From Botryllus schlosseri (taxonomy: Eukaryota): 64,000 nucleotides of DNA. Of this stretch, positions 20,099 through 62,158 are shown piece by piece. The position numbers and the translations under genes were made by a program. Location of the stretch: the NCBI GenBank assembly GCA_051294905.1, contig CM119371.1:11534001-11598000 (forward strand). Reading direction: 5' to 3'. Within the stretch, counting starts at the first letter, position 1. Every line of letters begins with the position of its first letter. The notes under the pieces were generated by a model, which had not been told where the DNA came from, searched no databases, and was given only the letters and a program-made list of their open reading frames with translations.

Positions 20099-20432
20099 CA
20101 AAACATGATAACCCATTCTATGCACGAGTCGAATATCTTGAAGTTGCAGTGGAATTCTATCCAGCGAACGCAAAGTCACTCTATCTACGGCTTTCGCCTC
20201 AGCGATCCTGGCTGCTTTAACCCAGTTAAGCGCATTAATTTGTCCATTCTAAACATAGACAAATTGAAAGTAACACATATATCATGTCCCATAAAGATTA
20301 ATTTATTATTACTTCCGATAGATCAGGCGACACAACGCAACTTCCGACGATAAATGTTATATTTCGAAATGTTTCTTGCCATAACGCGATGTCCAATGAA
20401 TCACAAGGAGCCTTCAGATATAGTTCTCGGAT
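20099..20432 (-). CDS. NLR repeat cassette 10 (A 20313-20432, B 20099-20248)
   Basis: A=IRELYLKAPCDSLDIALWQETFRNITFIVGSCVVSPDLSE; B=NGQINALNWVKAARIAEAKAVDRVTLRSLDRIPLQLQDIRLVHRMGYHVL. 64-bp intron. Confidence 0.82.
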
Positions 20433-21689
20433 CTGAAAGAAATCATGACAATTATATGTATAGCTTTTTTAGAACAAGTGTTGTCCGAAGCATGTTTCGT
20501 TAATAATGTAACTGAGTGTAGCCTATGCATTGTAATCTCTGACGTTCTGCGTTCGGAATCTCAATGTAGGTATCAGAGTAACATGTAAGGATATTTATTT
20601 ACTTGGCACGTCAATACATGCTTACAAAATTTACATCACTTGTAAGTCTCGTGAGAACATGATACAAATCGACACCAGAAGATCATAACAATTCAAATAC
20701 TTCGGCAAGGATAATATAAAACGATATTTGTAGATTGTTTATGTTTATATATAACGAAGCAAATACAGAGCATATATGTGACCCCTCTGTAATTGTGTAT
20801 GAAGCTTGTCACATATAATAATGGAATTGGTCACTAATGTGAAGTGTATGAGGCAATAATTAACGAGATTCTTGAAGTTGCAGTATGTTGTTGACGAAGC
20901 TACATTGACCGGTATTTACAGAATTTGTCATGCTTATATTTATATAGGCTATTCGGATATTCGAATATGAATTAATATTTGACTTGGGTCATGATTAGTA
21001 GCCTACTTTAATACTACTTATAACGTATGTGTAGTATCCCCAATTCGAAGCGAAGCTCCGATATCTCTACAACCGTTCTGAAATTATAAAATACGCAATA
21101 TTTGTGACATATGTACATTGCACATCCTTGAATTCCGATTCATGCACTGACAAATGGTTCAGATCGGGACACTCACTTGTTATCCAAATAATGTCACTAC
21201 TTGTCATACTAGTGGTGAAGAATAAAATATATTAATATAAAATTAAAGCTCCCTCATCCTTGCTATGCCTTGGCCATTTATTAGTATCGATATACGCTGG
21301 GGGAAAGCATGAGTCCGTTTTCGTTCCAAAGATCCTTCACTTGGATCAACGGACAATATCAAGGCCAAGGGCCTGGAAATCCAATATTTCGATGTAGGCC
21401 ACATACGGCCGCGTGTTTAAGACCACTGATCTAGGCGGCGCCGGAAAGGCAACTGCGTTGACGACCTCTACTTTTTCGAAGAATCAAAAGTTACATACCA
21501 ATACTTTTCGAATAGTTTCCCCGTGTATTCAATAACGTCTGCATACCCGCTAAATATGTCACTGTCGTAGTTCAAGATCCTCGTCAAAGGGAAACATCTA
21601 TTCACCCCCATATAATAGCAACTTATCTAAGATATCTGTAGACTACTCAGTACCTATCATCATATGGAATACCACGACATATCCGTGAA

Positions 21690-22345
21690 TTGCCGTATAA
21701 TCATTTCTAAAAAAGGCTACTCTTCCTACCAGGAAAAATACGCAAGATTTATAGAAATGAGCTTATCGGCGTTGGCCATTACAGCGCCACGACGCACCAA
21801 GACATATACAGTTTTAGGCCATGATGTAACACGCGACTCAACGAAGTGTGCCGGAACGATCGGCAGCGAGAAACCTTGGCCGAAAAGGACTGCCCTGGGG
21901 ACCGAAAACTTCGTTATATATACGAAATACATATAGGTTTATTTGTCCATAGGCACCTAAATGACTGACGCCGAATGTTCCTGTCTTGGTAATCTGAACC
22001 TCACAAGACAAATACCATCCCGCAGAGAAAAATTTGATGCCAGTGAAGAAATACCAATTTGAAATCGTGTGATCTTTTAGTTTAGTACGTTCCGGCGATT
22101 CCATATTTTTTGATATAGCAGACAGGAGGTCACGAAATAACATCATGTAACGAAGTCATACCAACGAGTCCGTCCGTCAGAAGATTTTTAATTATTATTT
22201 ACGGGCTCTACAATTTCAAAGACACCTCACTCAGCTCTACCGCTGGGTATAGAGAGGACAAGAAATTGACAGCAATATATATGCAATTCCCGATCTTATT
22301 GACCGATTTTCATCATGAATTATCAAAAGTTTTCGCGCTTGGCGC
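21690..22345. repeat. Unclassified dispersed repeat; inverted copy at about 31010-31650
   Basis: For example GACAGGAGGTCACGAAATAACATCATGTA versus its reverse complement at about 31220-31247. Confidence 0.75.
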
Positions 22346-23456
22346 TGTTCATCTGAACAGTCCAACTGTAATTTCGTGGCAAAAGCGAACAACGTGATTG
22401 GGGGGGAGATAGTCGGTTTATCACCCTATGGGAGCCCAAGACTCAAGTTTTTGGGGCGTTTGGGCCTGACGAAGTGCTGTTTCGTTCCTGCCAACGGGTA
22501 TACACCCGAAGATGTTCAATTATTATTGGGGGGTCCTACCTTTTCAAGCACACCTTACTCAGCTCTACCGGTAAATCGGATTACGGGAGCAGAGAGAGGA
22601 TAAAAATTGATAGCAATATACAAGCAATACCGATCATATTGACCAATTCAGTCATGAATTATATAAATTTCTCGCGCTTTGCACGATTAAGCAAGCAAAG
22701 CTGACTCACTAAACGGACACTCAATGTGTAAACAGCGTCATATTGACCGATTCAGTCATGAATTATACAAATTTCTCGCGCTTTGCGCGAATATGCAAGC
22801 AAAGCAAGCTCACTAAACGGACCCCCAATGAAAAAACAGCGTATACCAAATGTAAACAGCGTACAGTCTGAGGGGGGTCTGGGAAGGAGGGTCCCCCAGA
22901 AGTTCGGTGTTACCACCCTATGGGGGCCCAAGACCAACGTTTGGGGGGCTGACGAAGTGCTGTTACGGCCCTGTTAGTAATAACATGACTATTCACGATT
23001 TCGGTGCGAAAAGTATAAGCGGATATAAGAGTAAATAGATTAGTCCCGAGTTCACCTGCATTGAGCATGGGTAGATTAACATGGGTATTTGGCCTTCAGT
23101 CAGTTCATTACGACTATGGAGTATGCACTGGCATGCGACCGTAGCCAACATAAGAAATCGAAATGCGGGCGTAAATTGCAAAAAGGTTGGCCACATCTGA
23201 TGAACGATCTATCTTGACCTGATCCGTCGAGGCTTGAGAGATATCTTTAATCGAATTAAATTTGTTTTACAGAAGCAGATAATCTGTTCTTACAGCAGCA
23301 AGTAGCATCCAGCGTATACAACACAGGCAAATTAACAGCAAGCACTAGCGAGCAAACAAACGCATTTATACACCACGTCTTAACCTAACAATCAATCACA
23401 CAATCATTGACCTAATCAAATGAGAGAAACAGAAATACTAAATGAGAGTTCACAGG

Positions 23457-24974
23457 TCATAAGTAATTAAAGCTTCGCAACACTCCTTCTCTTATGACAT
23501 GCGTTATCTCTCGTTCAGGAATACGAGAAATTCCGATTTGCTCCCTCAAATTGCAGAAAGACTGTCGACGTAGCGGCTTTGTAAATATGTCGGCAAGCTG
23601 CTTTTCAGTCGGAACGTATTCGATGTCAATCTTGTTCGCATCGAGCTCGTCTCGGATATATCCAAATTTCACGGCTATATGTTTCGTTGCTTGGTGATTA
23701 ACCGGGTTTCGGCTCATCGCGATCGCGCTTTGGTTGTCTTCAAAGATGGTGATCGGCACTTTGACGCTTTTTCCCATCTCTTCAAATAATTGACGAAGCC
23801 ATGCGGTCTCACGAGCGGCGAGATTGAGTGCGATAAACTCTGCTTCGGCTGTGGCCTGCGCCGTTACTGATTGTTTCTTCGATCTCCAACTAATTGGAGC
23901 ATTTCCCATCAAAATGATGTACCCCGAGGTTGATTTCCTGTCATCACGGTCACCACCGAAATCGGCATCTGCAAAAGCTGTAATAGTGTTAAAACCACTC
24001 TTATAAGTTATACCGTAATCAACAGTTCCTCGAATGTAACGCAATAAACGTTTAATCATTTGCCAATGATATACGGTCAGATCACTGTTGTATTGTGCTA
24101 GTTTAGCCACTGCGAACGCAATGTCGGGTCGAGTATACACCGCCAGATAAAGTAGACTCCCAACAGCAGCTTGATATGTCGACGAATCGAACCTTCTGTC
24201 TGTCGGTTTTGCTTTCTCCAGCACCGCTCCCGAATCCATTGGAGTGGACACAGGCTTACACTCGGACATTCCGAATCGTCCCAGCACACTTTTTGCATAA
24301 CAGTCTTGTCCGATCCAAATACAATCATCTGTCTGCTTGACACGCATACCAAGAAAATGGTGTAACATACCCATATCTTTGACATTGAACATCTTTTGCA
24401 AAGTAGACTTCGTCTTCGCAATTACTTTCTTCGTTTTTCCCGCTAAGAGTATATCGTCAACGTAGACTGCTAATTGTACGTCTCCATCGTCGTAAACGCC
24501 ACTGTAAATACAAGGATCAGATTTCGTTTGTTTAAAGCCCACCTTAATCAATTCCTCGTGTAGAAATTGATTCCAGCATCGCGGTGATTGCTTCAAACCA
24601 TATATGGACTTTCTCAAGAGACAAACCTTATCCGCTTGTTCTTTCTGTACAAAGCCTTCGGGCTGTTTCATATAGATGATCTCGTCCAATCTACCATGTA
24701 GAGAAGCGGTTTTGACGTCCATCTGATGAATTTCCATATTTTCTTCGACTGCCAATGCAACAAACGCTCGAAATGAACTTGCATGAAAGACAGGCGAAAA
24801 GGTTTGTTCGTAGTCTTTTCCGTATCTCTGGGTATTTCCAAGTGCTACAAGTCTTGCTTTGGCACGTGTCGCGTTTCCATTTTCGTCGTATTTATACTTG
24901 AGAACCCATTTATTCCCCAAAATCTTCGCATCGGGTGGAGGATTAACGAGATCCCATACTTTTAAATATTTCAT
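23457..24974 (-). CDS. pol: Copia reverse transcriptase / RNase H
   Basis: KARLVA, QMDVKTA, IYGLKQSPR, YVDD, ADADFGG, EDNQSA, KHI, QLADIFTK. Confidence 0.93.
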   Translation of the reverse strand: MKYLKVWDLVNPPPDAKILGNKWVLKYKYDENGNATRAKARLVALGNTQRYGKDYEQTFSPVFHASSFRAFVALAVEENMEIHQMDVKTASLHGRLDEIIYMKQPEGFVQKEQADKVCLLRKSIYGLKQSPRCWNQFLHEELIKVGFKQTKSDPCIYSGVYDDGDVQLAVYVDDILLAGKTKKVIAKTKSTLQKMFNVKDMGMLHHFLGMRVKQTDDCIWIGQDCYAKSVLGRFGMSECKPVSTPMDSGAVLEKAKPTDRRFDSSTYQAAVGSLLYLAVYTRPDIAFAVAKLAQYNSDLTVYHWQMIKRLLRYIRGTVDYGITYKSGFNTITAFADADFGGDRDDRKSTSGYIILMGNAPISWRSKKQSVTAQATAEAEFIALNLAARETAWLRQLFEEMGKSVKVPITIFEDNQSAIAMSRNPVNHQATKHIAVKFGYIRDELDANKIDIEYVPTEKQLADIFTKPLRRQSFCNLREQIGISRIPEREITHVIREGVLRSFNYL

Positions 24975-25090
24975 CGATGTGATTTCTTAATTTGCAGCTT
25001 CTTTCCACATATCAGAGTGCCCTGACTGGAAGGCTTCTGTCAAGTTTTTCGGTTCATTCAACTGATGAACTGATGCGGGTATCGCATAAG

Positions 25091-25774
25091 TCAGCACTTC
25101 TGGTCTTCGGTTTGCTCGAAATTCTCATTGTAAGCAAGTCTTGGTGGAGGATTTCCTGCATTCCGTCGCGATGATCGACGCACTCCTTCCACTTGTTCAT
25201 TCGTCGGCATTTCTACCAATCGGTTATCCGCTGATTGCTGTTCGTCACTGTTTAATGAAGGATAGATGTATGACGATGTAGGACACTCAGGCTGAGCTTC
25301 AGTCGATTCTCCTTCCTGGCCAAATCGGGATTCATCAAATTTCACGTGTCGCCGAATCAGAACTTCTTTCCTGTCTTCGGACCACAGACGGCAACCTTTG
25401 GATAATAAATCATAACCGATTAAATTGCACACTTCAGCTTTCGGATCAAGCTTTTTCTTCCTTTCACTTTTCTCTATGAAGGCATAGGCTTTACATCCAA
25501 ATATTCTCAAGTGTCTTACATTCGGCTTAGTCCCATGATAAGCTTCAAATGGAGTTTTGTTGTTGAGAGCAACGGTTGGACTTCTGTTCTTCAGATAAGC
25601 GGCTGTCATTATTGCTTCCGCCCACAAGAAACCAGGTAATTTTGCTCCATGAAGCATCGCAGAAGCTCTCTCACAGAGAACTCGGTTCAAGCGTTCCGCA
25701 ACTCCATTTTGCGAAGGACATGACCGTACAGACTGTGTGGATGACAGGATGTCAGGATGAAACTCCTTCTGCAC
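25091..25774 (-). pseudogene. Copia integrase C-terminal part (HHCC and first catalytic residues deleted)
   Basis: QNGVAERLNR, WAEA, YLKNRSP, FGCKAY and KLDPKA are present; the WH-RLGH zinc motif is absent. Confidence 0.85.
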
Positions 25775-26650
25775 AGCGCATGATTTGAGAGTCTTTTCGA
25801 TCTAGCTCTACATCATCGGTATCAGATTCTTCAGTGTCTTTACCAGCTGCACCAGTACGAAAAGAATTGATATCACGATTCAATTCGTCATGATCATCAT
25901 TGGTTTTCAACGGTATCTTCATTTCTTCTTTGTTACAAGGTCGATAATCTAACATGTAGAGACCATTTTTCAGTGATCCAGCTGCAACAATATGACCCTC
26001 GTATCGATCCAAAATTCGAAGCTTCTTCGAGTTGAAAGTAACTTCATACTGATGCCTGGCAACAGCAGCTCGAATCGAGAATAACGTTGTCGATAGGTCC
26101 GGCACATAAAGCGCATTCTGCAAATCTGCAATGCCATATTCTGCGCCATCTCGGAAGATAATTATTCGAAGAGTTCCGATCCCTTCAGAGTAAATCAGGT
26201 TTCCATCGCCTAATTCAATTTCTTCGTGGCAATGTTTCAGGTCGATAAATAATTCTTTCCTGCAACTCATGTGACTAGTTGCACCACTATCACATATTAC
26301 AAATTGTCGATTTCGAGACAAAAATGCTGACGTATGAAGCAAGTAATGTCTTTTGACTCCAGAGATTGATTCAACACGTGGCATGTAATTCTTCGATCCA
26401 AGATTCTTGGAACGCACGACTTCAGATGAATAAAACATCGCATGTTTCGCTGATTTCTTAGTACGATATGCTTGTCTGCGACTATTGCCGTTTTCGTCGT
26501 CGACATAGTTAGCACTTTGACGTTGTCTACTTTCTCGGCGTTTCCTGAATTCACTTCCTTTTCCACGTTCACAAGACACGCGTTTTTCCTCACGTTCTTC
26601 ATTATTTTCAGGACGGTTCCAACAATCCGACATTTTATGACCATACTTTC
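25752..26650 (-). pseudogene. Copia gag end and protease
   Basis: HKMSDCW (second half of the zinc knuckle), DSGATSHM, ALYVPDL. Confidence 0.85.
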
Positions 26651-27802
26651 GAGTGTCTTTATTTTGTACATACAAGCTAATGAAAAGCTAATTAAGCTAA
26701 TTAAGCTAATGAAAAGCTAATTAAGCTAATGAAAAGCTAATGAAGCTAATGGAAAGCTAATTAAGCTAATGAAAAGCTAATGAAAAGCTAATTAAGCTAA
26801 TGAAAAGCTAATGGAGTTATTGGAAAGCTAATTAAGCTAATGAAGAAGTAAGCTAATGAAAAGCAAGCTAATGAAAAGTTAATGAAGCTAATGAAAAGCT
26901 AATTAAGCTAATGAAAAAGAAAGCTAATGAAAAGCAAGCTAATGAAAAGCGACGGCACCTCTTTCGTCTCGATCGGACCACGGGGAGGGAAGTTATGGTC
27001 CGAAAACCAAAGTTCGGACTTAAATTTTCTTCGATTTCGTCCCCATGTTAAAGGATACGGAAGTTGGACTTATGCCGTTGTTTCTAAAAACAATTTCAAT
27101 TTTTTTTTCTATTCCTTTTTTTCGGGTATCGTTCGACGCAGCTCACGGCGTAGAACGCGACGACACACTCGGCGTGGCTCTAGGAGGTCGCAGAAAGATT
27201 TTAGATTTTAGATTTTTATCCTCGTTCTGTTATCAGGAGCTTGAATCGACTATCCGCTTAGCTCTACGACGCACAGGAGCCGAGATACGACGATTCGTGT
27301 TATAGCTCGGATCCTGTGAGGCCCAGCCCCTAGCCCGACTCCTCGTTGGAAGCGCCGTCGCGAGACGAATCCGCAGAAAAAATTATCCGGATTGGGTTAT
27401 CCGGAGCCGAGATATGTCCGGTCAAAGGGAAAAAAGCGACTTTCGATCGGCTCTGGAGGCCACACCGTTTGTCCGATCCAGATAATTTCTTCACAGGGCG
27501 TCGACTTCATTAGCTTACTTTTCATTAGCTTACTTTTTCATTAGCTTAATTAGCTTTTCATTAGCTTCATTAGCTTACTTTTTCATTAGCTTAATTAGCT
27601 TTTCATTAGCTTCATTAGCTTTTCATTAGCTTACTTTTTCATTAGCCTAATTATCTTTTCATTAGCTTCATTAGCTTTTCATTATCTTGCTTTTCATTAG
27701 CTTACTTTTTCATTAGCTTTCCATTAGCTTAATTAGCTTTTCATTAGCTTCAGTAGCTTTTCATTAGCTTTTCATTAGCTTGCATGTACAAAATAAAGGC
27801 AG
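26651..27802. mobile_element. Foldback-type DNA element with internally repetitive long TIRs
   Basis: Arms of about 300 bp built from AAGCTAATGAA/AAGCTAATT repeats in inverted orientation; unique outer TIR CTTTATTTTGTACAT. Duplication CCATACTTTC at 26641-26650 and 27803-27812; non-coding middle. Confidence 0.9.
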
Positions 27803-28468
27803 CCATACTTTCCGCAATGATCACAATTTCCATTAAATTTCGGTTTTCCACTCTTTCGTCTTGCATTGTTTCTTGCGTGGTACGCCTGTACAGACTCTTT
27901 CGGTCGAATCGATAGATCAGTTTGTACGCGCAGTAACAAATCATTTAACGAAAATCTCGGCTTGTTCTGTATCTCATTCAAAATATAGCTTCGAGTTACA
28001 TCAAGACTAGGAGGCAAGTGCTTGATCACTCCGAAAACTTGGTCGGTCTCGGCAACGGCACGACCCAAGCTTGCCATCCTTTGGAATAGCATTTGACATT
28101 CCTCAATTTTCTCAAGGACGTTCTTTTCCGTGAATGTCGGCAACATATCGATCTCCATTTTCAATGTGAGATAAAGCGTAGCATTCTGTGGTTCAAACTT
28201 CGCTTTCAAGGCATTCCAAATTTCCTTAGGATCATCGTGGTGATCTTCAGGTATAGTTGGTAACACGGATCCACTCAAGTTGCAAAGTAGAATTCCCGCG
28301 GCTTTCATTTTCATTTTTCTAGAGGCAGCTCCTTCTGCGGTGTCATTGCCCATAACACTATTCCACAACTCATTCGCCATGAGGAGGCCTTTCACTTGGA
28401 CTTTCCACGACGTTCAATTACTGTTTTTACCGCATTTCAGTTTATCTAGGCTTGAAATTGCTGACATT
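27803..28468 (-). pseudogene. gag: Copia gag N-terminal part
   Basis: LW.../KEIWNALKAKF/LPPS motifs, ending in CDHCGKYG at the foldback insertion. Confidence 0.85.
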
Positions 28469-30010: not shown

Positions 30011-30346
30011 CTTCTCGCGATATTTTATTGCATTGAGCAATCGGATATCTTCAATCCGGAGGGCGATCTTATCAACCGAAGACAAAGTTACTTCCTCAAT
30101 GACTTCCACGTCAGCAATTACTGCTGCTTCGATCCATTTTGCAACATCCATTTTTCCGTGCTGAAAATGTGAAACAGAAGATCACATAGGCCTACTGTTA
30201 ATTTTATAAATTTAATTTAGCTTCACCTTTGATATTTTCGGCGCAACAATGCAACGCGAAACGGTAAATGATATATTTTGAAATGTTCGTCGCCACAAAT
30301 CGGCGTCGAACGAATCGAAATTAACTTCAATCCAAAAATTTAACAC
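30011..30346 (-). CDS. NLR repeat cassette 9 (A 30227-30346, B 30011-30160)
   Basis: A=VLNFWIEVNFDSFDADLWRRTFQNISFTVSRCIVAPKISK; B=HGKMDVAKWIEAAVIADVEVIEEVTLSSVDKIALRIEDIRLLNAIKYREK. Exon B ends at a GC donor (AAG|GCGAGT). Confidence 0.82.
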
Positions 30347-46938: not shown

Positions 46939-46946
46939 GTCTAGAT

Positions 46947-51540: not shown

Positions 51541-52169
51541 TGAAAATGAGAATTGATGATTGACCTCTTTTCACGGTACCGTAACTTTTTCTTTATGGAT
51601 ACTAGGATTTCCACGGTAATTCAGAAAATGGTGATAGTTGGAAAAAAGCGCGTAAATCGGAGAAATAGTTGAAAAACGCCCGTAAACCGAGGAGGGGGCA
51701 TCGAAAGCGCGTAAATCAACCAGGGGGCCTAGGCGACCACCCACCTCGCCCACCGCAAAAGCCACCACTGGCCCTACTGCGAGTCAGCAACGCAGTATCG
51801 AATTATAATATAAGAGCCCTATCCTAACTGGTATTTCATGGTATGTTCGATTTTTGTCAAGAAAACTATGCATATACCACTCCTACAAACACGAAATACG
51901 TCATATCCCCCTGTTATGATACATGTGTCAGGTTGTGTAAAATCATTGAAGTTTCAGCTTGCCTCAGCGTTCATGACATCGTCTTCGATGCGTTGCGGAA
52001 ACTTAATATAGATAACTAACCTAAAGATAGATGCGAAACATGTGACTGGAAGCTGGTTAAGTAACCAGATACAGCTAGCGATTGCTCGTCGCTACATGAA
52101 CATATATTGTATGCCAGTGGCCGGACAGCATTATGTCTAAAGTAGGTAAGGACTGTATTGACGCTCGGA

Positions 52170-52540
52170 TGCTACGTCTGGGGCATGTTCGGACTATGTT
52201 GCCACTCGGAAATCATATCCGTCGTATCTTCGCACTGTGTTCCGCCACTAGGACACCATGTCTTTGGTATGTTCGTACTGTTTTGCGCGACTGGACATTA
52301 TGCTGCCTGGGGTATGTTCGGACTATATTGCCACTCGGACATCATGACTTTGCTATGTTCGCATTGTGTTCCGCCACTAGGTTATCATGGCTGCGGCATG
52401 TTCGGAATTCGTTGCCACTACACTCCGAGTGGAATAATGGCTGAATGGCAACGCCACCGAACATACCCCAGACATATTATACGAGTGGCAACATAGCACG
52501 AACATATCCCAGACATGGTGTCCGCGTGGCAATACATAAT
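52170..52540. repeat. Short tandem repeats with an inverted copy (probable MITE subterminal array)
   Basis: ATGTTCGGACTAT.TTGCCACTCGG units followed by reverse-complement units from 52447. Confidence 0.65.
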
Positions 52541-52736
52541 GAATCAATCCGAAACATGATGCGGACTGGCCGTTGGCGTGCCATATCTGTTAACGAAACG
52601 ACCAGCCATCGCTTGCTTCATCTGGGTACTCAACTGTCAGTCCGCATCCATCAGTAAGTTATTTATCTATAGACTTAATAGTTGGTCAAACACCATCTCG
52701 CGGATAGTATATTCTCACTCCCATAATAATGTTCAC

Positions 52737-53075
52737 CTTGCCCGAAAAATTCAATTCATTCAGTCTCTGCAAATCTTCAATTCCCAAGGGAGTTCGACCA
52801 TCAAAATCCAAAGAAACGTGATTTATCGCTTTGACATTCGCAGCATCTGCTGCAGCTACAAATGTTTTAACGTCGATTTCCACTACCTGAAAAGCGTCGA
52901 AGATGGTAATGTCGCACATATTGTATTATATCAGATTTCATATGCGGGTCACCTTTTTTAATTGGTGCACATGTAAGTAGCAATGCTCCACAGGGAAGCA
53001 TATATTTTGAAATACCAGCCTCCAGACATTTTCATCAAATGATTCCCTCTTTAAAGTTATCCATAATTCTCTAAT
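52737..53075 (-). CDS. NLR repeat cassette 4 (A 52953-53075, B 52737-52886)
   Basis: A=IRELWITLKRESFDENVWRLVFQNICFPVEHCYLHVHQLKK; B=VVEIDVKTFVAAADAANVKAINHVSLDFDGRTPLGIEDLQRLNELNFSGK. 66-bp intron. Confidence 0.85.
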
Positions 53076-54815
53076 CTGAAAAAAATATTAACCTAGCATA
53101 TCAGAATGGCATTGGCAATGGCATTTTACCGAATCATCGTATCGTGCATCAAACTTAAATACATATTTTTATAAATTGAAGAGTCGAACAAATTATTATC
53201 ATTGACATCCTTATGGTATTTCAGTAATTGTGTGAGTGGTCAATATAAACTTATTATCGTTGCGATTCAGATGTTTCAATTGGTGTTTGGCGTGATTTTC
53301 TCTTTTTGATCTTGGATATGAGTCATGGTAGAGATAGGAGTCATGGTGTTGTTTAGCAGTCATTGTTCGTCTGCGAATGACAAGACTGCTGGTGTGCGTA
53401 CAATGGGTTTGAGTGTATGCATAGTATTAGGGTTGCATATAGAAAAACAGTTTTTTTAAACACTTTGTTTAAAACCTCTTTTGAACAGTGTTTTAAACAA
53501 ACGATTTTTTTTCCAAATGTATCTTTTTAAGTTGTAAAATTATGCCATAATTGTGTAAAAACTTTCCAAAAACATGTTGTATATGAGCCCACGGACAATA
53601 ACCACCCGATATAATAGCCGACATATATTGATGGGGAATGGTTGGAATCCTCAAAATAGTCGGTTCAACAGCAATATAGTACAGACATTTTGTCAAATGA
53701 GCTATATTTACCCTATATTTTCAATTGTCGATTTCAATCCACTATGACGCCACAATTGAGTATTCGTAATGCCATGGCTTAAAAAAACATGTTTTAAACA
53801 AGGGCCTTGTTTCAAACATGTTTGTATTGAATTGATGGGATGGATGCAGTAGGTTGTCTGCTTATTCGTAAGTTATGTGTCAATCAATAAAGATCTCGGT
53901 TGTGTTAAGTTATGTGAATATATATAGCATATATACCACTATAGCACTATACCACTATATGCATTCATTGCTGCTGGTGCTAAGCTAGCCGTATCAGGGA
54001 TGCTGCCATACGATGTACCATTAAGTATCTTGGAACATAGACTGCGAAGAAATCATGGGATATCACAATAGTATCGTTATATCTGTAGTGCTGTACTACC
54101 GCCCCTGAACAACGAATAAAGTACCAGCGCCGCCCGAGTCCCAGCCACCACATTTAAATGATAAACGAAAGTTTTTGTATACATATTACAATTACATAAT
54201 GAGTAAAAATTTAACCAGACTCCAGGGAAATTTTTCTAAATGATTCAATTGTGTATCCAGAACGATTGATAGTAAGGGAGATATTGAACTTTAGTGTGCT
54301 GGCAAAATTGTTCTTCACTGCATGACGACTCTTTAATCGTTTCATGCTCGGAAATTTCACGGAATGGAATGATTATCCAGTAACGAACTTTTGATTGGAA
54401 TATATCCTGAAGTCAAAGTACCATATATCCTTGTGCAGTTTTCGAGATTATTGCTGTATACTTCAACGTCAACAGGACGGTTACGGTTATGCGTACAGGA
54501 CCGTTATCAAGCCCAGAGAATTGGAAAAATTCACGTCTTATTAAATCTCTCTGATCCATGGGGCTTATTACAGACTCCAGACAGTGTCATTTTCACCTAA
54601 TAGATCATATTTCATAGTTACCAAAAAAGGATAAATTCGACTCATAAAACTTGATGAATAGCCTATGTTCGTCAATAATAAGTCATTTCTTTTCTCGTAA
54701 CTAGAACAATTGTGTGACAGGGTCGCATCAGTGGGAAGATTTCACGACCGTTTGAAACAGAGAGTAAAATCGCGGAAGGCGGTTTTGCTTAAAGCCATCG
54801 CACCCTCTGTGCAGC

Positions 54816-55098
54816 GGTGGCGAGATAGCGCAGTGGTATAATCCGCGGCTGCAACACCGATGGGTGCGGGTTCGAGTCCGACCGAGGTCGACTTCCGAAT
54901 TCCGACACCTAAGTGTTGGAGGTTTACCTAGGCTCCTCCTCGCCACCTCATCCGCGTCAGCGGTGTCTTACAAAAGTCTAGAGGTGGGCCGTGCTATAAG
55001 TCGGCAGTTACGGAAAATAAGAAGAATATCGGCCTGGTGTAAATGACCATAGTAGTCGACAAACACCATGAATACCCAAAACAAACAAACAAACAAAA
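54816..55098 (+). mobile_element. tRNA-derived SINE
   Basis: A box TAGCGCAGTGG, B box GGTTCGAGTCC, (CAAA)n tail, 14-bp TSD ACCCTCTGTGCAGC. Confidence 0.93.
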
Positions 55099-55718
55099 AC
55101 CCTCTGTGCAGCAATGTAAGTGTTCAAATACATCGTAGTTATCACCACACAATATACCACGCTTTCTGGTGATTCTGCCGACTGGTCAATCAGTCCATTG
55201 ATGGGTAAGATATATATTGTCAAGTAACAATTTAATTTTCCGGTACAGCCGCTCGAACAGACCGACGCCTGGATCGACCATAAATTGTCTTGACATAACA
55301 GATTTTGCAGTTTTTACTGCAAATTTCGCTGTTTTATTCATCATTCGTCTCGACACTATACACAGCAGTTGCCGTCCAATCCTCAACCGCCCCCATTTTC
55401 ACTCTCAGCACCCCCTACCCCCCCCCCCCCCCCCCCCATAATTCATGGACAGCCCCCTCCAATCGCCCATTTCGTGTCCAGCGCCCTGTTAACGTTCGCC
55501 AACGCCCCCAGGGGGTCGCTGGCGCCCACTTTGGGAATCACTGATCTAAACGGATATGACATTCGAAACAATCTCAATGTTCCAGAAAAATTTTAAATGG
55601 TATTGTGTGATATGTTCGATTCGTTGGCTGCCATCGTAAGCAAACCTAGGCGGATGACACACTTGCACACAGGATAGACGTCAATATCTCCCCTACTATG
55701 TTACATGATGCGTCCTGA

Positions 55719-56102
55719 CAGTGGTGGCTTTTGGGGTGGGCGAGGTGGGCGGGCGCCCGGGCCCCCTATTTGGAATATGTGCTTTTTTCAAGGATAATAA
55801 CGAATGAACATGGAAATACATGTACCAAGCAAGAATATGATTCCATACAGATGTGTCAATCATCATCAAATCTCTGCATTTGTTAGAAAAGTCCCGTATC
55901 CCGATAATCATCACGTCTCTGCATGCGGTAGTGATTGTAGTCTATCCATGCAATAAAAGACATCGCCGAATCCATCACCTGGGCAAACCTTGCCGGGATG
56001 AAAGAAAGTTAGAGTAGAAAGAAAGTTAGGATTGGACACTTAAAGCGCCCCCCCCCCCTTCGGTAAGTCTAGCCCAGCCCCCTGTTCGTAGGCCCACCAC
56101 TG
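55719..56102. mobile_element. hAT MITE (CAGTGGTGG ends)
   Basis: Perfect TSD CGTCCTGA; a related end occurs at about 51720-51770. Confidence 0.87.
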
Positions 56103-56360
56103 CGTCCTGATAGTTTTAGACTAGTTGCTGTATATAGTCCAAGATCGAGATATAGGTAGACTAGACATATATTGGAATGATAATGTGGGAATGCTTCAAA
56201 TATTTTTTGAGTTCAATACCATTCCAACAATCGTTAGAGCATAACTATTTTCCAGTGGAAGACGATTGTGGAAGATCATCAAATTTTGTTCTTAGCTATG
56301 TGTCGGAAATGTTGCATAAACATAGTCACGTAAACACACGCTTGGGAAGCATATTTTCAC

Positions 56361-56692
56361 CTTGCAACAAAAATTCAATTCATTTAATCTCTGGAAATCT
56401 TCAATTCGAAGTGGGGTGCTAACATCGAAATCCAACGAAACTTGATTTACCGCATTGACATGTGCGGTATATGCGGCAGCTACAAGTGTTTTTACGTCGA
56501 TTTCGGTGACCTGAAAATAAGTAGTTATAGCTGGCATATGGTAACATCTCAGATTTATATGCAAGTTACTTTTTGTTCTCGTTGCACATGTACGTAGCAA
56601 TGCTCTACATAGAAGCGTATCTTTGCAAACACCTTCCTCCAGACACTTTCATCAAATGATTCTTCGTTCAGAGGTATCCATAATTCCCTAAT
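56361..56692 (-). CDS. NLR repeat cassette 3 (A 56570-56692, B 56361-56510)
   Basis: A=IRELWIPLNEESFDESVWRKVFAKIRFYVEHCYVHVQREQK; B=VTEIDVKTLVAAAYTAHVNAVNQVSLDFDVSTPLRIEDFQRLNELNFCCK. 59-bp intron. Confidence 0.85.
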
Positions 56693-57377
56693 CTGAACGA
56701 GTTGTAAATCGTGGATAATAGCTGAATATACCAAAGGTGTCTTTACAGTGTTTACAGTCATGAAATTTTAGTGCTAATCGTCATTGTATACCTTGAAGAC
56801 TTGAACAGGCTATCCTAAAAATATTTTGGTTACTTCAGTAATTGTTGAAGTCATCAGTAACCTACTTCCCTGGGATTCAGCTGTGTTCAAATGCTGTTTT
56901 ACGATGTATGTCCTTGAAGAAATATCCCATAATACATCAATATAGACGAGTGCTGCTTGTAATAAACGAATCAAAAAGCATACTTTCGCCCTCCAATAAA
57001 CCATACATCCTGCTACGATAGGTATAAAGACATTACGAATTCATTATCGAACGTCACCAGCTATGTGCTTCATCAATAAAATGCTATGTGTCAATGGCAG
57101 CGTATCAATGGATTTCACATTTATTTCTGTGCAAACGTGCGACTGTTTACATGCTACTAGACAAAAGGAGCTGCATTTCAATGCATCATTTGTATAGCAA
57201 TGTGATGAACATGAGACATATACCAGAAACAATGCATCAAAATATTCTAGGGTCCTTATATACTGACAATTTACTATTTTGTTATAAATCTATTTCAATG
57301 GATTCAATGGGTGATATGATCGTTAAGTCAGAAGAATATCTGAAGAAAATGATTTGGTCGCAAAATAAATCAAATAC

Positions 57378-57718
57378 CGTCCCACAAAAATTCAGTCCTA
57401 TGATTCTTCCGATTTCTCCTATTTCACTGATTCGAAATGACACAGAATGGTCCGAATATACGGATAATTCTTCCACGTTAGCGATTTTAACAGTTTCTGC
57501 TACGTCGGCCCATGATCCGAGATGAATTATTTTCGTCTGAACCAAGGAAGAGTTAAAGTTTAGAATACCTTACTTCGAATTCACAGCCACGCTACCTTTT
57601 CAACTTCGGGAAGTTTAACATAACAATGATGAACCTCGATCGAAATCCGTTGAAATATACATTCCCAAAGATTTTTGTCGAATGATACCTCGTCGGAGCT
57701 TATCCACATTTCTTCGAT
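57378..57718 (-). CDS. NLR repeat cassette 2 (A 57596-57718, B 57378-57536)
   Basis: A=IEEMWISSDEVSFDKNLWECIFQRISIEVHHCYVKLPEVEK; B=TKIIHLGSWADVAETVKIANVEELSVYSDHSVSFRISEIGEIGRIIGLNFCGT. 59-bp intron. Confidence 0.8.
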
Positions 57719-57938
57719 CTAACATAATATGAAATCATTAGTTACCACATTGATGGGACAAGATGTGGAAAGCTAATGCGATGTCGTTGCTGCTCTTCGA
57801 TTAAAGATTGTAACAAAGAGCCAATCTTGGGTGAGAATATTTGATACTGACTTGCGAATATTACAAGCTGTTGGGATATCTGTAGAGTATGCATAAATAT
57901 TTATTTGTTCAATTTTACAAGTAATCAGTAGTACATAC

Positions 57939-58272
57939 TTTTGTCAAACTCAAATCGAACTTGGCGAGTTCTTCAACTTCTTTAATGTCCAATCGAAGAC
58001 ATTTCAAGTTAGCGATTTCGATTCGAGAAACATTCTCTTCCGTAGCTTTTAATAAATCGAAAACAACATCTTCGAATTTCTAAACAATATAAGTGTACAC
58101 GTGTACAGTGATGAAAAACTAATGACCCATTCGAAATCAGAATATTGTTCTTTACCCGTTCGATGCGAGGTAAATCCATGCGCAAAGTAGTAACTTCCAT
58201 GTTTCTAAAAATCTCTTGCCAATATTGCACGTTTGACCAGCTCGTATTTTGTCTCATATCAAATTTGTCGAT
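57939..58272 (-). CDS. NLR C-terminal repeat cassette 1 (exon A 58156-58272, exon B 57939-58079), divergent
   Basis: A=IDKFDMRQNTSWSNVQYWQEIFRNMEVTTLRMDLPRIER; B=KFEDVVFDLLKATEENVSRIEIANLKCLRLDIKEVEELAKFDLSLTK. AG/GT boundaries, phase 0, 76-bp intron. Confidence 0.7.
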
Positions 58273-58682
58273 CTTGGAAAGAAGATAACCTTTGTATTTC
58301 ATATTGGTTTGAAAATTGCTTATCGTGAAGAGAAAAAGAGTTAACATGCTTGTGGTTAATATTTAATGTTGTGGGTGGGGCACAGACGGACTGATATTGG
58401 AACAACACTGCTTCAAATTTATTTCAGAGAACTTATTCAAGCATATGACCGAATATCATTATTGTTTTATTGAATCAGAATATAGTATCCAGTCGCCATG
58501 ATATTCAACGCCGATATTATATTCATGTCTGCGAGTGATGCTGACTATTGGGATAGTCTGCAATATGGAAAAAATAATTATTAAACAATAGATGGAAAGT
58601 GTTACGAGATTATATCTACCTGAAACACCATGTACAAATTGATACCATTGCAACGGTTATTGGTGGCTAAGTCAACAGTTAC

Positions 58683-58990
58683 CTTGATATGCTGTCTTTT
58701 CGTCTCTGAGGCCAGAACCCTCAGCAAATAGTCATCAATGTTGCAGTTGTTGAACGATAATGATTTCACTCTTCCGAGATTTCCAATCACCGAGCACAAC
58801 GTATTCACCACTACTGGCGTCAGGGGGTAATTCGAGAAGTCAAGATCTTGTGCGTAACTTTCTAGTGTTTCGAACGCCGCCGCTTCTTTCAAAGATGTGA
58901 AAATATCCAATTTTTGCGCTGGAGGTATATCTTGTTTTAGTTGAAACTTCAAATTTTCCATGAGATATTCCGCTTTTAGTGGTAAATCAT
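58683..58990 (-). CDS. NLR exon following NACHT (HD2 end plus first RI-like LRRs)
   Basis: The phase-1 acceptor aaacag|AT GAT TTA joins in frame to the NACHT exon. LRR-like strings QDLDFSNYPL and VKSLSFNNCNI; phase-0 donor AAG|GTAAC. Confidence 0.85.
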
Positions 58991-59504
58991 CTGTTTGAAT
59001 GTATATAAAATAATGATAATTGGCGGAACCGCACCAATGGAGCGGTAATAAAGAGGGCCTTTTATATTTGGAAGCCGAATGTTTACCGTCAGTAGACAGT
59101 ATTGTAAAAATAGTTCTCACAATCTATGTAGTGTAGGCCCTATGTATATTTTGGGAAATTATTTCAACTTCCTATAATAGCTATTCCAAACGAAAAACAA
59201 CTTATTGTTTAGTAATAGGTCAGACAACCTCGATAAAACAGTAATTGCACCGCTGGCCTTGCTGACTGGTTAGCGTGAGTCCGGGCCGGTCATGCCCGAG
59301 AAAGTGGGCGTGGTAGCAACCAGCAGTGTATCTGGTGATATATCTGAATCCAAATCATATGCAGAACAACTGGTACGCGGATAAGATGTTGCTAGACACA
59401 GGCATACAGCCGTAGTAATGTCACAAGTATCAATTGCAGTAGTAGGCCTACTCGTAGTATAGCAGTATATATTCAGGCGTATAGTCTACTTCAATGACGC
59501 GTCG

Positions 59505-59793
59505 CTTGTTTGTTTGTTTTGGGATATTCATGGTGTTTGTCGACTACTATGGTCATTGGTCATTTACACCAGGCCGATATTATTCATATTTTCCGTAACT
59601 GCCGACTTATAGCACGGCCCACCTCTAGGCTTTTTGTAAGACACCGCTTACGCGGATGAGGTGGCGAGGAGGAGCCTAGGTAAACCTCCAACACTTAGGT
59701 ATCGGAATTCGGAAGTCGACCTCGGTCGGACTAGAACCCGCACCCATTGGTGTTGCAGCCGCGTATTATACCACTGCGCTATCTCGCCACACG
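59505..59793 (-). mobile_element. tRNA-derived SINE, same family
   Basis: Reverse complement of 54816-55098; 11-bp TSD ATGACGCGTCG. Confidence 0.93.
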
Positions 59794-60284
59794 ATGACGC
59801 GTCGTTAATGTTACGAACGAGACGAAGGCTAATTACTCGGTTTGTAATCCAATCACTCAGCTACTCGATTATGGTTAGAGTTATAGCTTGGGTTAGATAT
59901 AGGGATATAGTTTGGGTTTGATTGAGATCGGATTATCACTATGTGCCAGTAACTGCATTACAAAGTAAAAGTCATTGACGAATGACCGAATAAAACGTGT
60001 TTCGCAAAATCTATGACATTCTTGCACCAGCATGCATCGGTTTTGTAAGTCAGTAAATAGTACATATATCACAGTTTTTGACGCAATAATCGGGGTACAA
60101 ATCAATACTGTAAGTGATTTTATCGGGTGTACACGAAGTAATAAGTGAATTGAAATAATATATGCAATGATGTAATAAGGTGAATTATGTGCCTTTATTT
60201 TAGTGTGCGCAACCAGCCTGGTGAATTTACGAAGCCTACCTAATATATATATATATATACAGCATGACTCTATCGGCTAAATGT

Positions 60285-60637
60285 TAGGGTCACCATACGC
60301 CCTCTTTTAAGAGGATTTGTCCTCTTTTTTCACTTTTTTGAAAGTGTCCTCGGAGGACGCCCAGATGTCCTCTTTCTTAAAAATTCTGGTTAAATGTATG
60401 TTAAAATTCAACTGAGATATATGAAATCAGTACCTAAGCACGACAGACGACCGTTTTTTTAGTCAATTAACGGAAAATTCATGGAAAGTAGGTATATTGG
60501 GAGTCGACTCGGAAAGATGGCGTTTTTTAGTCTAACTCGGAATAAATTTACCAATTTTTTCGGATTTAACTCCTGTAATGTAGGTCTGATTTTTTTTAAG
60601 TGTCCTCTTTTCAGATTACCAAAATTTGGTAACCCTA
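60285..60637. mobile_element. hAT MITE, same family as 36480-36917
   Basis: TAGGGTCACCA / TGGTAACCCTA; shared internal sequence. Confidence 0.78.
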
Positions 60638-60745
60638 CTCATCGTAATCAGCACTATACTATGTCCCCCGGGCCTGTAATTAATTCAACTCTCTACTGAA
60701 CCATACAGCCACATAAACATTATTCAAGTCCAATAATTTACTGAC

Positions 60746-62158
60746 CTTTTTTGAGAATTTGAGAAAGTATATTTGCTCTCACACTCTCATTTTTCAGAAT
60801 GCCACTCGTGAAATTGCGGACAACAGTCCAGTAGGGCTTGCAGAATTCACAATCCACAATTCGCTTAAAATCATCTAGTCTCATTTCCGCTACGAAAAGT
60901 CCCGCTAACACTTCTTGAAGAGTTTGATGACTGAAAAAATATCTATACATCCCAGCGAGTATTTTCTGGCCTAGAATCATCAGTCCCGGAACTTTAATCA
61001 TGATATCACTGATGTCGTTGTATTCGAGGCTATATTTGGATAGGTCTTCGTTGGTGAATGTTACCTGTTGGTTCATTGTACCATTGAATGTCATTTCTTT
61101 CAACTTGCTGATGACATGAATTACGTCGATCGTGTCGTTGATGTTTCTTGTATTCTCACATTCCAGGAAAATTTGTATCATCGCAACCATCACTCCGGAT
61201 GCACAATTAGGAGGGTTCGATGGGGCCCGTTTCCTCGTTATCATATAAAATACCAGAAACAATGGTGTCAGACACATGTAGTGCATAGCAGGGTTAGATA
61301 ACTTCATTTCATGCCAATCCTTTTCGGAATTTTCCCCCATCAATTCGCAATACATTTTCTCTGCTTCATCTTCACTAAATCCCACTAAAGCCACTATAAA
61401 CTTAGGTCGCATCTCTTTAGTCAGGCGGGCCACTGAATGTTCTCTGGATGATATGATGATAGGAACGTTAGGTAAAAGATTCCCTGCCAGAATGTTACCA
61501 AATATCGTAGGCGTGTTTGAAACTTCCCATGGCTCAATTCTTCTGTCGCATATTGGGTCCCATGTAGCTTGATCCAATCCATCGAAGAACATAATAATTT
61601 TGAATACCCCATCAAGTATGGCCTTGAGACCATATGATAGTTCATGTACTGACAACTTGGTCACGATAGGACTGAATATAACATTAGCTAATGTGATATT
61701 CTCATGGTTTGGAATATCTCTGATATTCATGTGCAGTACGACATGATATTGTGAAGGTGTAGTTTCATTTCGGAACACTTGAACAAATTTCTCCCATGTA
61801 GAACGTTTTGGTCTTCGAAGGTTATTTGCAATGATCAGTCCCTTTGCTAATCTTTTCATCATGACGGTCTTGCCACTTCCCGGTTGTCCTATAATAGCGG
61901 ACGGACCCACGTGTTCCTCTTGGATGCGCTGTAGACAAGCTTTGTACTCTATAAAACTTCCACTTTTCGGTTTGCAGTGGGCACTGAATCCTTCTTGTGG
62001 CAAATATTCTCCTTTGTATAGTTCGAATCCTGTTTTCAATTGGGGATAAAACTCCACGTCTGGTTCGGATAAAGCTTCGTACGATTCCAAAACTTTACCC
62101 TGCACATTATTCCACGAGATACGATTGATTTTCTCCTTAAATCCAGCGAGATATTTGC
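60746..62158 (-). CDS. NACHT-domain exon of an NLR-type (STAND NTPase) gene
   Basis: Motifs: Walker A GQPGSGKT, Walker B IIMFFDGLD, sensor-1 IIISSR, LVGFS, CLTPL, and winged-helix FFSHQTLQEVLAG. Acceptor ttcag| at 62158 and donor AAG|GTCAGT at 60746; 1413 bp, phase 1/1. The N-terminal effector exon(s) were not identified. Confidence 0.93.

Follow-up and report, generated by a model that had tools for sequence, protein, structure and literature searches.

What kind of gene sets a NACHT exon ahead of a long series of short repeated exons, and what do those exons encode? The window analysed here is a stretch of 64,000 nucleotides of Botryllus schlosseri DNA. Our main reading, to which we give a probability of roughly 70%, is that its minus strand carries one lineage-specific ascidian NLR-type gene with a C-terminal array of ten cassettes, probably LRR-like.

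Anatomy of the gene

A sequence-only reading of the window had described ten two-exon units downstream of the NACHT exon, and on re-examination its coordinates, sizes and total length all hold, with NACHT exon and cassettes on the same strand. The gene as found starts at 62158, the first base of the NACHT exon, and ends at 20099, the last base of exon B of cassette c10. In order of reading, its parts are as follows.

60746-62158, minus strand: NACHT exon, 1413 nt, phase 1 at both ends
58683-58990, minus strand: linker exon, 308 nt, phase 1 to 0, kept in four paralogs
57939-58272, minus strand: c1, type 1; A 58272-58156 (117 nt), intron 76 nt, B 58079-57939 (141 nt)
57378-57718, minus strand: c2, type 2; A 57718-57596 (123 nt), intron 59 nt, B 57536-57378 (159 nt)
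56361-56692, minus strand: c3, type 3; A 56692-56570, intron 59 nt, B 56510-56361
52737-53075, minus strand: c4, type 3; A 53075-52953, intron 66 nt, B 52886-52737
48649-48974, minus strand: c5, type 3; A 48974-48852, intron 62 nt, B 48789-48649
35849-36183, minus strand: c6, type 4; A 36183-36061, intron 62 nt, B 35998-35849
32623-32966, minus strand: c7, type 4; A 32966-32844, intron 65 nt, B 32778-32623
30486-30816, minus strand: c8, type 5; A 30816-30697, intron 61 nt, B 30635-30486
30011-30346, minus strand: c9, type 5; A 30346-30227, intron 66 nt, B 30160-30011
20099-20432, minus strand: c10, divergent type 5, the last; A 20432-20313, intron 64 nt, B 20248-20099
20024-20044, minus strand: probable frame end, read either as a 7-codon tail exon after a 54-nt intron or as read-through of c10 B

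The proposed NLR-type identity is supported by a Pfam NACHT match (PF05729) at 7.1e-15, scoring 55.7 bits against a cutoff of 26.7, and by 28-33% identity to uncharacterised NLR-like proteins of Styela clava (P0001-P0005), which are the best full-length relatives. The translated NACHT exon contains the Walker A motif GQPGSGKT and also FFDGLDQ. The Styela identity spans the NACHT exon and the linker (model residues 1-581), the BLASTP alignment of P0001 reaching residue 581. A NOD2_WH match on the gene falls below the Pfam cutoff (E 0.0094; 16.5 bits, cutoff 23.1), and the Styela relatives that align over the post-NACHT part carry PF17776. In these Styela proteins the homologue of the linker exon is the helical and first LRR region behind NACHT, and the exon itself is 41-90% identical (tblastx) in the four paralogs that keep it.

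The phases agree along the gene, the NACHT exon ending in phase 1 where the linker starts in phase 1, and the linker ending in phase 0 ahead of c1. Joined in this way, NACHT exon, linker and cassettes give a partial model of 1483 aa with zero stops, from which we infer that they are spliced into one mRNA. Because the NACHT exon starts in phase 1, there must be an exon upstream of it. The NACHT exon has no start codon ahead of its P-loop, no 5' exon with a start codon was found in the 7.8 kb upstream, the 1.5 kb ahead of the NACHT exon in 11 paralogs shows no conserved exon, and no N-terminal effector domain (death-fold, TIR etc.) was recognised by eye in the open frames of 62159-70000. At the other end, the tail exon and the read-through of c10 B would both finish at the same TAA (20026-20024), and the exon A and B profiles found no cassette match downstream of c10 within the window.

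Twenty open, phase-0 exons

Exon A measures 117-123 nt and exon B 141-159 nt, with an inner intron of 59-76 nt between them. Together the 20 cassette exons come to 2712 nt, or 904 aa, so that the module measures about 91 aa. Every one is stop-free, a multiple of 3, in phase 0 and preceded by AG; 19 have a GT donor and one, c9 B, has GC (AAG|GCGAGT), in agreement with the AG and GT/GC borders first described. Given a stop frequency of 0.052 per codon on this strand, the chance of all 20 being open is about 1e-21, and the ten short inner introns hold 53 stops in 620 codons over all frames. When c4 alone was used as a tblastn query it matched exon A of eight and exon B of seven other cassettes (E 4e-4 to 3e-21); it missed both exons of c1 and the B exon of c2. 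With profiles of the ten A and the ten B exons, the window gave matches at i-E <= 0.01 in these 20 places only, every one on the minus strand, with A and B strictly alternating; at i-E <= 0.05 there was one additional weak, partial A-like match (33127-33086), lacking splice bounds. The exon anatomy is thereby established. Since every cassette exon is in phase 0, whole exons or whole cassettes can be added or removed without a frameshift, as the sequence-only reading had argued.

The two longest introns lie between c9 and c10 (9578 nt) and between c5 and c6 (12465 nt), and introns of 9.6 and 12.5 kb are unusually long for ascidian genes. Both hold transposon remains.

23457-28413, minus strand: Copia-type LTR retrotransposon remains in the c9-c10 intron (Pfam RVT_2 1.1e-70, SH3_retrovirus, Pol_BBD, Retrotran_gag_2)
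40842-41375, plus strand: TNP/THAP9-like DNA-transposase fragment in the c5-c6 intron (Pfam TNP-like_RNaseH_N 3.4e-13)
43106-47214, minus strand: LTR-retrotransposon pol remains (RNase H, integrase) in the c5-c6 intron

Within the last of these, 43109-45025 matches Pfam rve, RT_RNaseH and Integrase_H2C2, 45029-45457 matches RT_RNaseH_2 below the cutoff, and 46858-47214 gave no Pfam match. The 38-kb extent of the array is thus secondary, because retrotransposons inflated two of its nine inter-cassette introns.

Paralogs and turnover of cassettes

We find 12 paralogous NACHT exons at 54-87% identity, and one more at 47%. Each of the 12 is followed, 5-28 kb downstream on its own strand, by cassette exons, which establishes the linkage of the cassettes to NACHT; for the exon at 47% there was no cassette exon among the matches listed. 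The A and B profiles, as had been suggested for a search with the units, reached these paralogous loci, on which they had not been trained, with E values down to 1e-22. In four mapped paralogs each of the 40 A/B profile matches (i-E <= 0.05) could be refined to a phase-0 exon of matching size, free of stops and bounded by AG...GT, and in ten further short loci the same holds for 31 of 33, the two misses lying at locus ends. The anatomy is therefore conserved in the family.

The number of cassettes varies, with ten here against 4-6 in the 40-kb stretches of the four mapped paralogs. Five positional types nevertheless keep one order, with tandem duplications within genes: the window reads 1,2,3,3,3,4,4,5,5,5 and the paralog at C1:17.13 Mb reads 1,2,3,4,4,5. 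The type-1 clade joins c1 with three paralogs (SH-aLRT 100), and within-gene clusters of the same type include p12.4M_2/3/4 (SH-aLRT 97) and p11.4M_5/6 (96). Evolutionary gain and loss of cassettes, anticipated from the window alone, is supported by these counts and clusters. We propose that the array evolves through birth and death of whole cassettes, by tandem duplication and loss, a turnover that would be harmless to the reading frame because the exons are phase symmetric. Purifying selection is established as well: the dN/dS comparison that had been called for gave 0.24-0.80 over 29 cassette pairs, below 1 throughout, and 0.13-0.22 for the NACHT exon in four of six comparisons, dS being saturated in the others.

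Expression and the state of this copy

RNA mapping had been put forward as a way to confirm the junctions, and did not do so. Three bulk RNA-seq runs carrying the same species label were sampled at about 6%, 6% and 13% of the run; the mean depth was at most 0.19 on every exon-bearing bin, and no exon-exon joint of the gene was among the 15 joints listed, of 95. Such near-zero depth would suit a silent or decaying member of the family, a young pseudogene whose frames stay open only through recent duplication. The GC donor at c9 B, the large transposon-filled introns, the 5' exon that was not found and a nearest paralog differing at only 6% of non-synonymous NACHT-exon sites point the same way. 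However, about 4.4 kb of coding sequence runs without a stop, and for the cassettes alone the probability of this by chance is about 1e-21; the nearest paralog lies at a dS of 0.1-0.4, and all 29 pairs stay below a dN/dS of 1; and c3-c7 are open though they have no counterpart in that paralog. NLR genes are moreover often expressed at low levels or only upon induction, which also counts against decay. We therefore regard a pseudogene as rather unlikely.

Since no transcript joins the cassettes to NACHT, they might instead form a separate downstream gene, co-duplicated with the NACHT gene. Several observations argue against this: c1 starts in phase 0 right behind the phase-0 donor of the linker, none of the ten exon A peptides in the window begins with Met, the Styela homologues are single NACHT-plus-repeat proteins whose alignment extends a few residues into c1, and the same order and strand are kept in 12 of 12 close paralogs. 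Two genes thus appear very improbable, and we continue with a single NLR-type gene.

A further proposal is that regulated or stochastic alternative splicing of the phase-0 cassettes yields many receptor isoforms from this one gene. The uniform phase and homologous borders would permit it, and skipping of LRR-region exons is documented for human NLRP3 (PMC6642158). Yet the RNA samples held no junction reads, 12 paralogs with differing arrays already supply diversity, and the fixed order of five types favours a defined architecture over free shuffling, so that we consider extensive isoform production improbable.

Fold of the module

The cassette probably comprises three beta-alpha units that are irregular LRRs. 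The consensus of 28 cassettes has h-x-x-h-x-h strands at positions 1, 29 and 62, with an amphipathic helix pattern behind every one of them. The module would accordingly fold as three strand-helix units of about 28, 33 and 30 residues, a putative RI-like LRR super-repeat lacking the usual Asn/Cys ladder, and ten cassettes may then build an LRR-like solenoid of about 30 units. MAFFT brought the helix-strand segments of exons A and B into register in two runs, and in the second of these the Trp column was conserved in at least 90% of 62 rows. For one paralog cassette, two AlphaFold2 models of low confidence (mean pLDDT 61.7 and 41.9, with 20 intron-encoded residues included) together give E4-6, H15-27, E31-34, H66-75, E83-87 and H96-104, which read as beta-alpha three times once the intron-encoded stretch is set aside; neither found a fold match (Foldseek best E 0.23, VIA best Z 5.1). 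Language-model features (Atlas) place exon B of c4 nearest to LRR_4 clusters (score 0.90), with seven of its ten best named matches in the LRR_4 family or clan, a proximity that we take as a lead only; exon A had no usable match there.

As judged by sequence statistics, the LRR reading receives no backing. Pfam gave nothing at E <= 1 on four cassette-region translations and no LRR family at E <= 10 for the ten single B exons, and a PDB sequence search with the cassette returned no relevant match. Among 1.84 billion representative proteins, the exon B profile matched two short ORF fragments and a pair of spurious repeats, and no full-length or spliced product. With hhalign, the cassette aligned to the 55-aa LRR pair of Styela at P 0.21, exon A to exon B at P 0.28, and the three sub-repeats to one another at local P 0.056-0.53, none a significant likeness.

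It could be, then, that the cassettes are real exons of the NACHT gene and the module a new repeat fold rather than an LRR, in which case the NACHT protein would have a sensor domain of an undescribed kind. Sequence methods tie the cassette neither to LRRs nor to anything else, the LRR Asn/Cys position is unconserved in the 28 cassettes, and the ordinary 55-aa LRR pairs of the Styela relatives fail to align with it. Against this, the regular strand-helix pattern with its spacing of about 30 residues fits an irregular LRR solenoid, the cassettes directly follow an LRR-like linker, and both the Atlas lead and the beta-alpha order of the two weak models are in keeping with such a solenoid. We consider a non-LRR fold unlikely, and prefer the irregular LRR array.

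Proposed function

In the gene as we read it, the NACHT exon would encode the NTPase switch and the 904-aa C-terminal array a sensor or regulatory region; by analogy with other NLRs, the array may serve ligand sensing or auto-inhibition. A bolder version holds that the cassette is an undescribed sensor repeat (with a fold of its own, or of an LRR class that present models miss), seen so far in one ascidian lineage and exploited both by evolutionary birth and death among at least 12 paralogs and by exon skipping in the animal. To this combination we lend little credence, but if true it would provide a combinatorial intracellular receptor repertoire in an invertebrate chordate without adaptive immunity.

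Comparison with known systems

Two comparisons concern extracellular proteins. Small leucine-rich proteoglycans have super-motifs of three LRRs, which the putative three-LRR super-repeat resembles. The VLR genes of lampreys show cassette-wise LRR variation in jawless-fish immunity, their diversity arising by somatic assembly, of which there is no sign here. The Styela clava NLR-like proteins share the NACHT motifs of the window gene, but the C-terminus of P0001 and P0004 is a run of 55-aa LRR pairs unlike the cassettes; P0001 has a precomputed PF13516 match, and BLASTP of the spliced model against the Styela proteins gave nothing relevant past residue 586.

The architecture had been thought unfamiliar, and here the claim to novelty was overstated: frame-preserving modular NLR exons are known (PMC6642158, PMC4852459), and what is new, as far as sequence comparison goes, is the unit itself, a pair of exons that jointly encode about 91 aa and resemble no known LRR model in sequence. 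The exon analysis in Hoss et al. 2019 (PMC6642158) describes strictly frame-preserving LRR exons of equal length behind a large NACHT exon in human NLRs, a 171-bp exon that encodes two canonical LRRs (28 and 29 aa) with its border inside a beta-strand, and LRR exons of vertebrate NLRs that can be dropped or added without altering frame or fold. The window gene resembles these, NLRP3 included, in having a large NACHT exon followed by short, frame-preserving exons of near-constant length with borders at a homologous position of the repeat; measured by the symmetric phase and near-constant length of modular exons in that account, all 20 exons here and each of the 40 profile matches in the four paralogs are of this kind. 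It differs from the genes described there in that the unit is two exons (117-123 and 141-159 nt), both in phase 0, in that the cassette border lies just before the first strand, and in that the cassettes match no Pfam LRR model.

Zebrafish NLR genes, in the account of their exon structure by Howe et al. 2016 (PMC4852459), have a variable number of LRRs (0-6), each on a single exon, and the NLR-B30.2 group is a lineage-specific expansion whose largest exon holds the NACHT and helical domains. The ascidian family is likewise a large lineage-specific expansion in which repeat number varies between genes. By that same account, the zebrafish genes end in B30.2 and their LRRs belong to the Pfam LRR clan, whereas the ascidian array has no recognisable C-terminal domain and, in place of single-exon LRRs, is built of up to ten two-exon cassettes of five positional types.

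Anatomy of the cassette array

The window DNA is eukaryotic, rich in retrotransposons and of about 40% G+C; a prokaryotic-style ORF reading was rejected. Using tblastn with the fourth cassette (c4) alone, open-frame mapping and unit profiles, we located ten exon-A/exon-B pairs, exactly where the sequence-only reading had placed its ten two-exon units. The features of the predicted gene are listed below.

Features of the predicted gene in the window
62158-60746, minus strand: NACHT exon, phase 1 at its start and at its end
58990-58683, minus strand: linker exon of 308 nt between the NACHT exon and c1, entered in phase 1 and left in phase 0
Exon A of c1-c10, minus strand: 117-123 nt (n = 10)
Inner A-B intron of c1-c10, minus strand: 59-76 nt (n = 10)
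Exon B of c1-c10, minus strand: 141-159 nt (n = 10)
20026-20024, minus strand: TAA frame end after c10, the same stop being reached with a 54-nt intron removed or read through

All 20 exons have lengths that are multiples of three, lack stops and are preceded by AG. The donors are GT in 19 cases and GC in one (exon B of c9), where the sequence context is good. The array totals 2712 nt or 904 aa; on these points, too, the sequence-only reading was accurate. Given the stop frequency of this strand (0.052 per codon), the probability of all 20 exons being open by chance is about 1e-21, and the ten short inner introns hold stops at 53 per 620 codons. At i-E ≤ 0.01 the A and B profiles had no window matches outside the 20 exons, and the matches lie on the minus strand throughout in strict A-B alternation. 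The ten-cassette array is a real feature of the window. Two other readings, a non-coding tandem repeat and an array carried by a transposon, were rejected: the exons are open, they have splice signals, and their dN/dS values are below 1.

Relaxing the cut-off to i-E ≤ 0.05 added one weak, partial A-like match without splice bounds at 33127-33086 (minus strand). Scoring 12.3 bits over profile positions 22-35, it sits some 120 nt upstream of c7 and could be the remnant of a cassette since lost.

Gene model and expression

A minus-strand open frame of 475 codons (62165-60738) carries a NACHT domain (Pfam PF05729, 7.1e-15), and the spliced partial model comprises 1483 residues without a stop. In 5.8 billion protein clusters, a collection without gene models of the window's own organism, six matches were found in total: the closest full-length relatives are uncharacterised NLR-like proteins of Styela clava (29-33% identity), and one match is from Clavelina lepadiformis (24%). 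These matches mark the organism as an ascidian. By BLASTP against the Styela proteins, residues 1-581 align, which cover the NACHT exon and the linker and reach just into c1, with nothing relevant in the cassette part.

A first exon or exons with a start codon were not found in the 7.8 kb upstream, where open frames to position 70000 were inspected by eye and held no recognisable domain. Comparison of the upstream flanks of 11 paralogs by tblastx gave no conserved exon, the matches being limited to repeats and to the flank of the closest paralog, which is near-identical. At the other end of the gene, the 240 nt that follow the last mapped cassette in four paralogs showed no terminal exon conserved between them.

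No RNA run was listed in the index as containing positions 52600-62300 of the window. We compared four read or contig sets (X1, X6, X9 and X10), three of them RNA runs, with positions 48500-62300. In the three sampled bulk RNA-seq runs, which carry the same species label, exon-bin depth was at most 0.19 and none of the 15 joints listed, out of 95, was an exon-exon joint; the high depths sit on repeats (49.0-50.3 kb, 53.1-55.9 kb and 59.1-60.9 kb). Contigs of X1, whose RNA label was guessed, cross from exon into intron, so that this set looks like DNA or unspliced material. Low RNA depth in the sampled runs is no demonstration that the gene is silent.

Separately, thousands of RNA reads from X6 and X9 map in part to a C-rich run at 55409-55443, their unmatched ends being poly-C or poly-A, most likely a low-complexity mapping artefact.

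Introns and mobile elements

From c1 to c10 the introns between cassettes measure 220, 685, 3285, 3762, 12465, 2882, 1806, 139 and 9578 nt, and the two longest contain remains of mobile elements. The retrotransposons among these account for the 38-kb extent of the array.

Mobile-element remains in the introns between cassettes
9.6-kb intron: copia-type remains (RVT_2 1.1e-70, gag, SH3-like, beta-barrel)
12.5-kb intron: remains of another LTR element (RNase H, integrase)
12.5-kb intron: TNP-like transposase fragment

A compact paralog at C1:17.13 Mb (C1 being the contig of the window, which occupies C1:11534001-11598000) fits six cassettes into about 10.6 kb, as against 38 kb for the array in the window.

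Several other repeats were noted. The copia-like element carries, in the stretch that separates the gag from the pol frames, two oppositely oriented arrays (26674-26950 and 27521-27781) of a unit of 11-20 nt, AAGCTAATGAA and its complement. A short interspersed repeat is present as two inverted copies in introns of the gene (54728-55046, minus strand, and 59498-59921, plus strand); its RNA and contig depth is very high, and the family is therefore common, with transcription from some part of the genome. The c4-c5 intron holds a tandem repeat at 50948-51404 (150-nt unit, 3 copies, 80% match). Two intronic open frames (34016-34633, 205 aa, and 38812-39483, 223 aa, both plus strand) have no Pfam match and are presumably remains of unclassified mobile elements. 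Outside the gene, an LTR-retrotransposon pol at 4541-8991 (plus strand) with RVT_1 and integrase is split into four overlapping open frames of 824, 150, 208 and 359 aa, which suggest frameshifts.

Paralogs and turnover of cassettes

We searched the 496-Mb assembly (219 contigs) and found at least 90 matches to the NACHT exon (90 scored of 200 candidates), most of them about 30% identical to that of the window and many on contig C1. Judged by sequence, this is a large expansion of predicted NLR-type genes in an ascidian. Twelve paralogous NACHT exons share 54-87% identity with the window's, and for all 12, searches with four cassette exons placed such exons on the same strand, 5-28 kb downstream. 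A thirteenth, at 47%, had no cassette exons among the matches listed.

Four paralogs were mapped over a 40-kb stretch each with a profile cut-off of i-E ≤ 0.05. All 40 profile matches refine to exons without stops, in phase 0, 117-123 or 141-159 nt long and bounded by AG and GT, as do 31 of the 33 matches at ten further 3-kb loci, where both misses fall at locus ends. The four paralogs yield 18 complete cassettes, or 28 with those of the window, and across all 28 the inner introns span 52-76 nt. A tree of these 28, from a quick search on 91 columns with 13 of 25 inner branches unsupported, resolves five types in a fixed order, and cassettes cluster within genes at two paralog loci (p12.4M_2/3/4, SH-aLRT 97; p11.4M_5/6, SH-aLRT 96).

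Order of cassette types along the array
Window gene: 1,2,3,3,3,4,4,5,5,5
C1:17.13 Mb paralog: 1,2,3,4,4,5
C1:11.43 Mb paralog: 1,2, then four of type 5

Two matches to type-5 exon B (C1:12521828-12523079, plus strand) are separated by 53 kb from the NACHT exon upstream of them at C1:12.468 Mb; they represent either a very long array of that paralog or a detached cassette fragment.

The sequence-only reading had proposed dN/dS among cassettes as a check; by the Nei-Gojobori method it was 0.24-0.80, below 1 in 29 cassette pairs. For the NACHT exon it was 0.13-0.22 in four of six comparisons, dS being saturated in the other two. Together, the open refined exons, the dN/dS ratios, the linkage and the type tree show, at the level of sequence, that the cassette exons are coding and constrained, less so than NACHT, that they and the NACHT exon move together as a block, and that whole cassettes have been duplicated and lost. 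The proposal that cassettes can be duplicated or deleted is thus borne out for evolution by the type tree, the within-gene clusters and the differing arrays of the paralogs. Most likely, the window gene is a functional, lineage-specific predicted NLR gene, with an array of repeats that evolves in units of one cassette.

In one cassette of a paralog locus at 2.92 Mb on contig C12 (L035:1482-1811), the A-B intron is 60 nt long, a multiple of three, and stop-free, so its retention would add 20 residues in frame. The other A-B introns of in-frame length (five, and three more) all contain stops.

Fold and family of the cassette

Translations of the cassette region matched no Pfam family at E ≤ 1, the ten B exons none at E ≤ 10 save one stray DUF, and no relevant cassette match was found among PDB sequences. 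The search with models of the unit that the sequence-only reading had called for found paralogous loci within the genome; among 1.84 billion representative proteins the exon-B profile had four matches, two being unrelated internal-repeat proteins and two short ORF fragments (88 and 52 aa) running from exon B into the intron. By hhalign, no link was found between the cassette and the LRR pairs, 55 aa long, at the C-terminus of the Styela relatives (P 0.21), among three putative sub-repeats (local P 0.056-0.53) or between exons A and B (P 0.28).

The consensus of 28 cassettes reads as three units, IxxLWIxxxxxSFDxxhWRxTFQxhxFx, VxxChVxxPxxxxxxxIDVxxWhxAAxIAxxxx and VxEVxLxSxxxhxLxIEDIxxLNxhxhxxK, with h-x-x-h-x-h cores at positions 1, 29 and 62 and an amphipathic pattern after each. 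In two MAFFT runs the helix-strand parts of exons A and B were aligned with each other, half of the fragment rows being shifted onto the other exon in both alignments. AlphaFold2 was given the L035:1482-1811 cassette only, unspliced, the sole cassette readable as one frame by virtue of its open 60-nt intron. The two models, with mean pLDDT 61.7 (alignment A3) and 41.9 (alignment A6), jointly have strand-helix three times outside the intron-encoded stretch. For the better model, the best Foldseek match in the PDB (E 0.23) and the best match of a wide fold search with VIA (Z 5.1, rmsd 2.8 over 76 residues) are meaningless at such predicted quality. By language-model features, LRR_4 clusters are the closest to exon B of c4 (0.90), which is no more than a lead; the same comparison (Atlas) gave nothing for exon A. 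The cassettes lack the Asn/Cys ladder that canonical LRRs have. From the consensus cores, the MAFFT superposition, the order of elements in the AlphaFold2 models and the LRR_4 lead, we therefore read each cassette as three putative beta-alpha units and the array as probably an irregular LRR-like solenoid.

Comparison with known NLR systems

No living group is more closely related to vertebrates than the tunicates. Here one subfamily, with 12 members among at least 90 NACHT exons, has a C-terminal array unseen by standard domain models. Annotation pipelines probably split such genes into fragments or label them NACHT-only, which would understate sensor diversity and how it arises. As a natural example, the locus shows cleanly how exon modules of symmetric phase allow a receptor surface to grow and shrink.

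In the excerpts of Hoss et al. (2019, PMC6642158) drawn on here, NLR LRR domains have 'strict exonic modularity': the NLRP3 LRR exons are strictly frame-preserving, are 171 bp each and encode two LRRs of 28 and 29 aa, their borders fall at a constant site in the beta-strand, and exon 5 is skipped in human cells. The excerpted text of Howe et al. (2016, PMC4852459) describes hundreds of zebrafish NLR genes, with NACHT and helical domains in the largest exon and LRRs on single exons, 0-6 per gene. In the excerpted part of a metazoan NLR survey (PMC11508797), ascidians appear only as NACHT-LRR or NACHT-only, without an N-terminal domain. Given the repeat exons described in the first two sources, the modular principle put forward in the sequence-only reading was, on these excerpts, already established, and its suggestion of novelty stands only for the two-exon unit of about 91 aa, for which no description was found. 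Literature searches covering main texts turned up no account of a cassette of this kind from tunicates, and outside the genome of the window the unit has been seen only in two ORF fragments of uncertain source, among 1.84 billion proteins. Compared with known NLR LRR exons, the ascidian unit differs in comprising two exons, both of phase 0, in being invisible to LRR models and in forming an array of five positional types in fixed order. The window gene is a known design varied, not a new kind of system.
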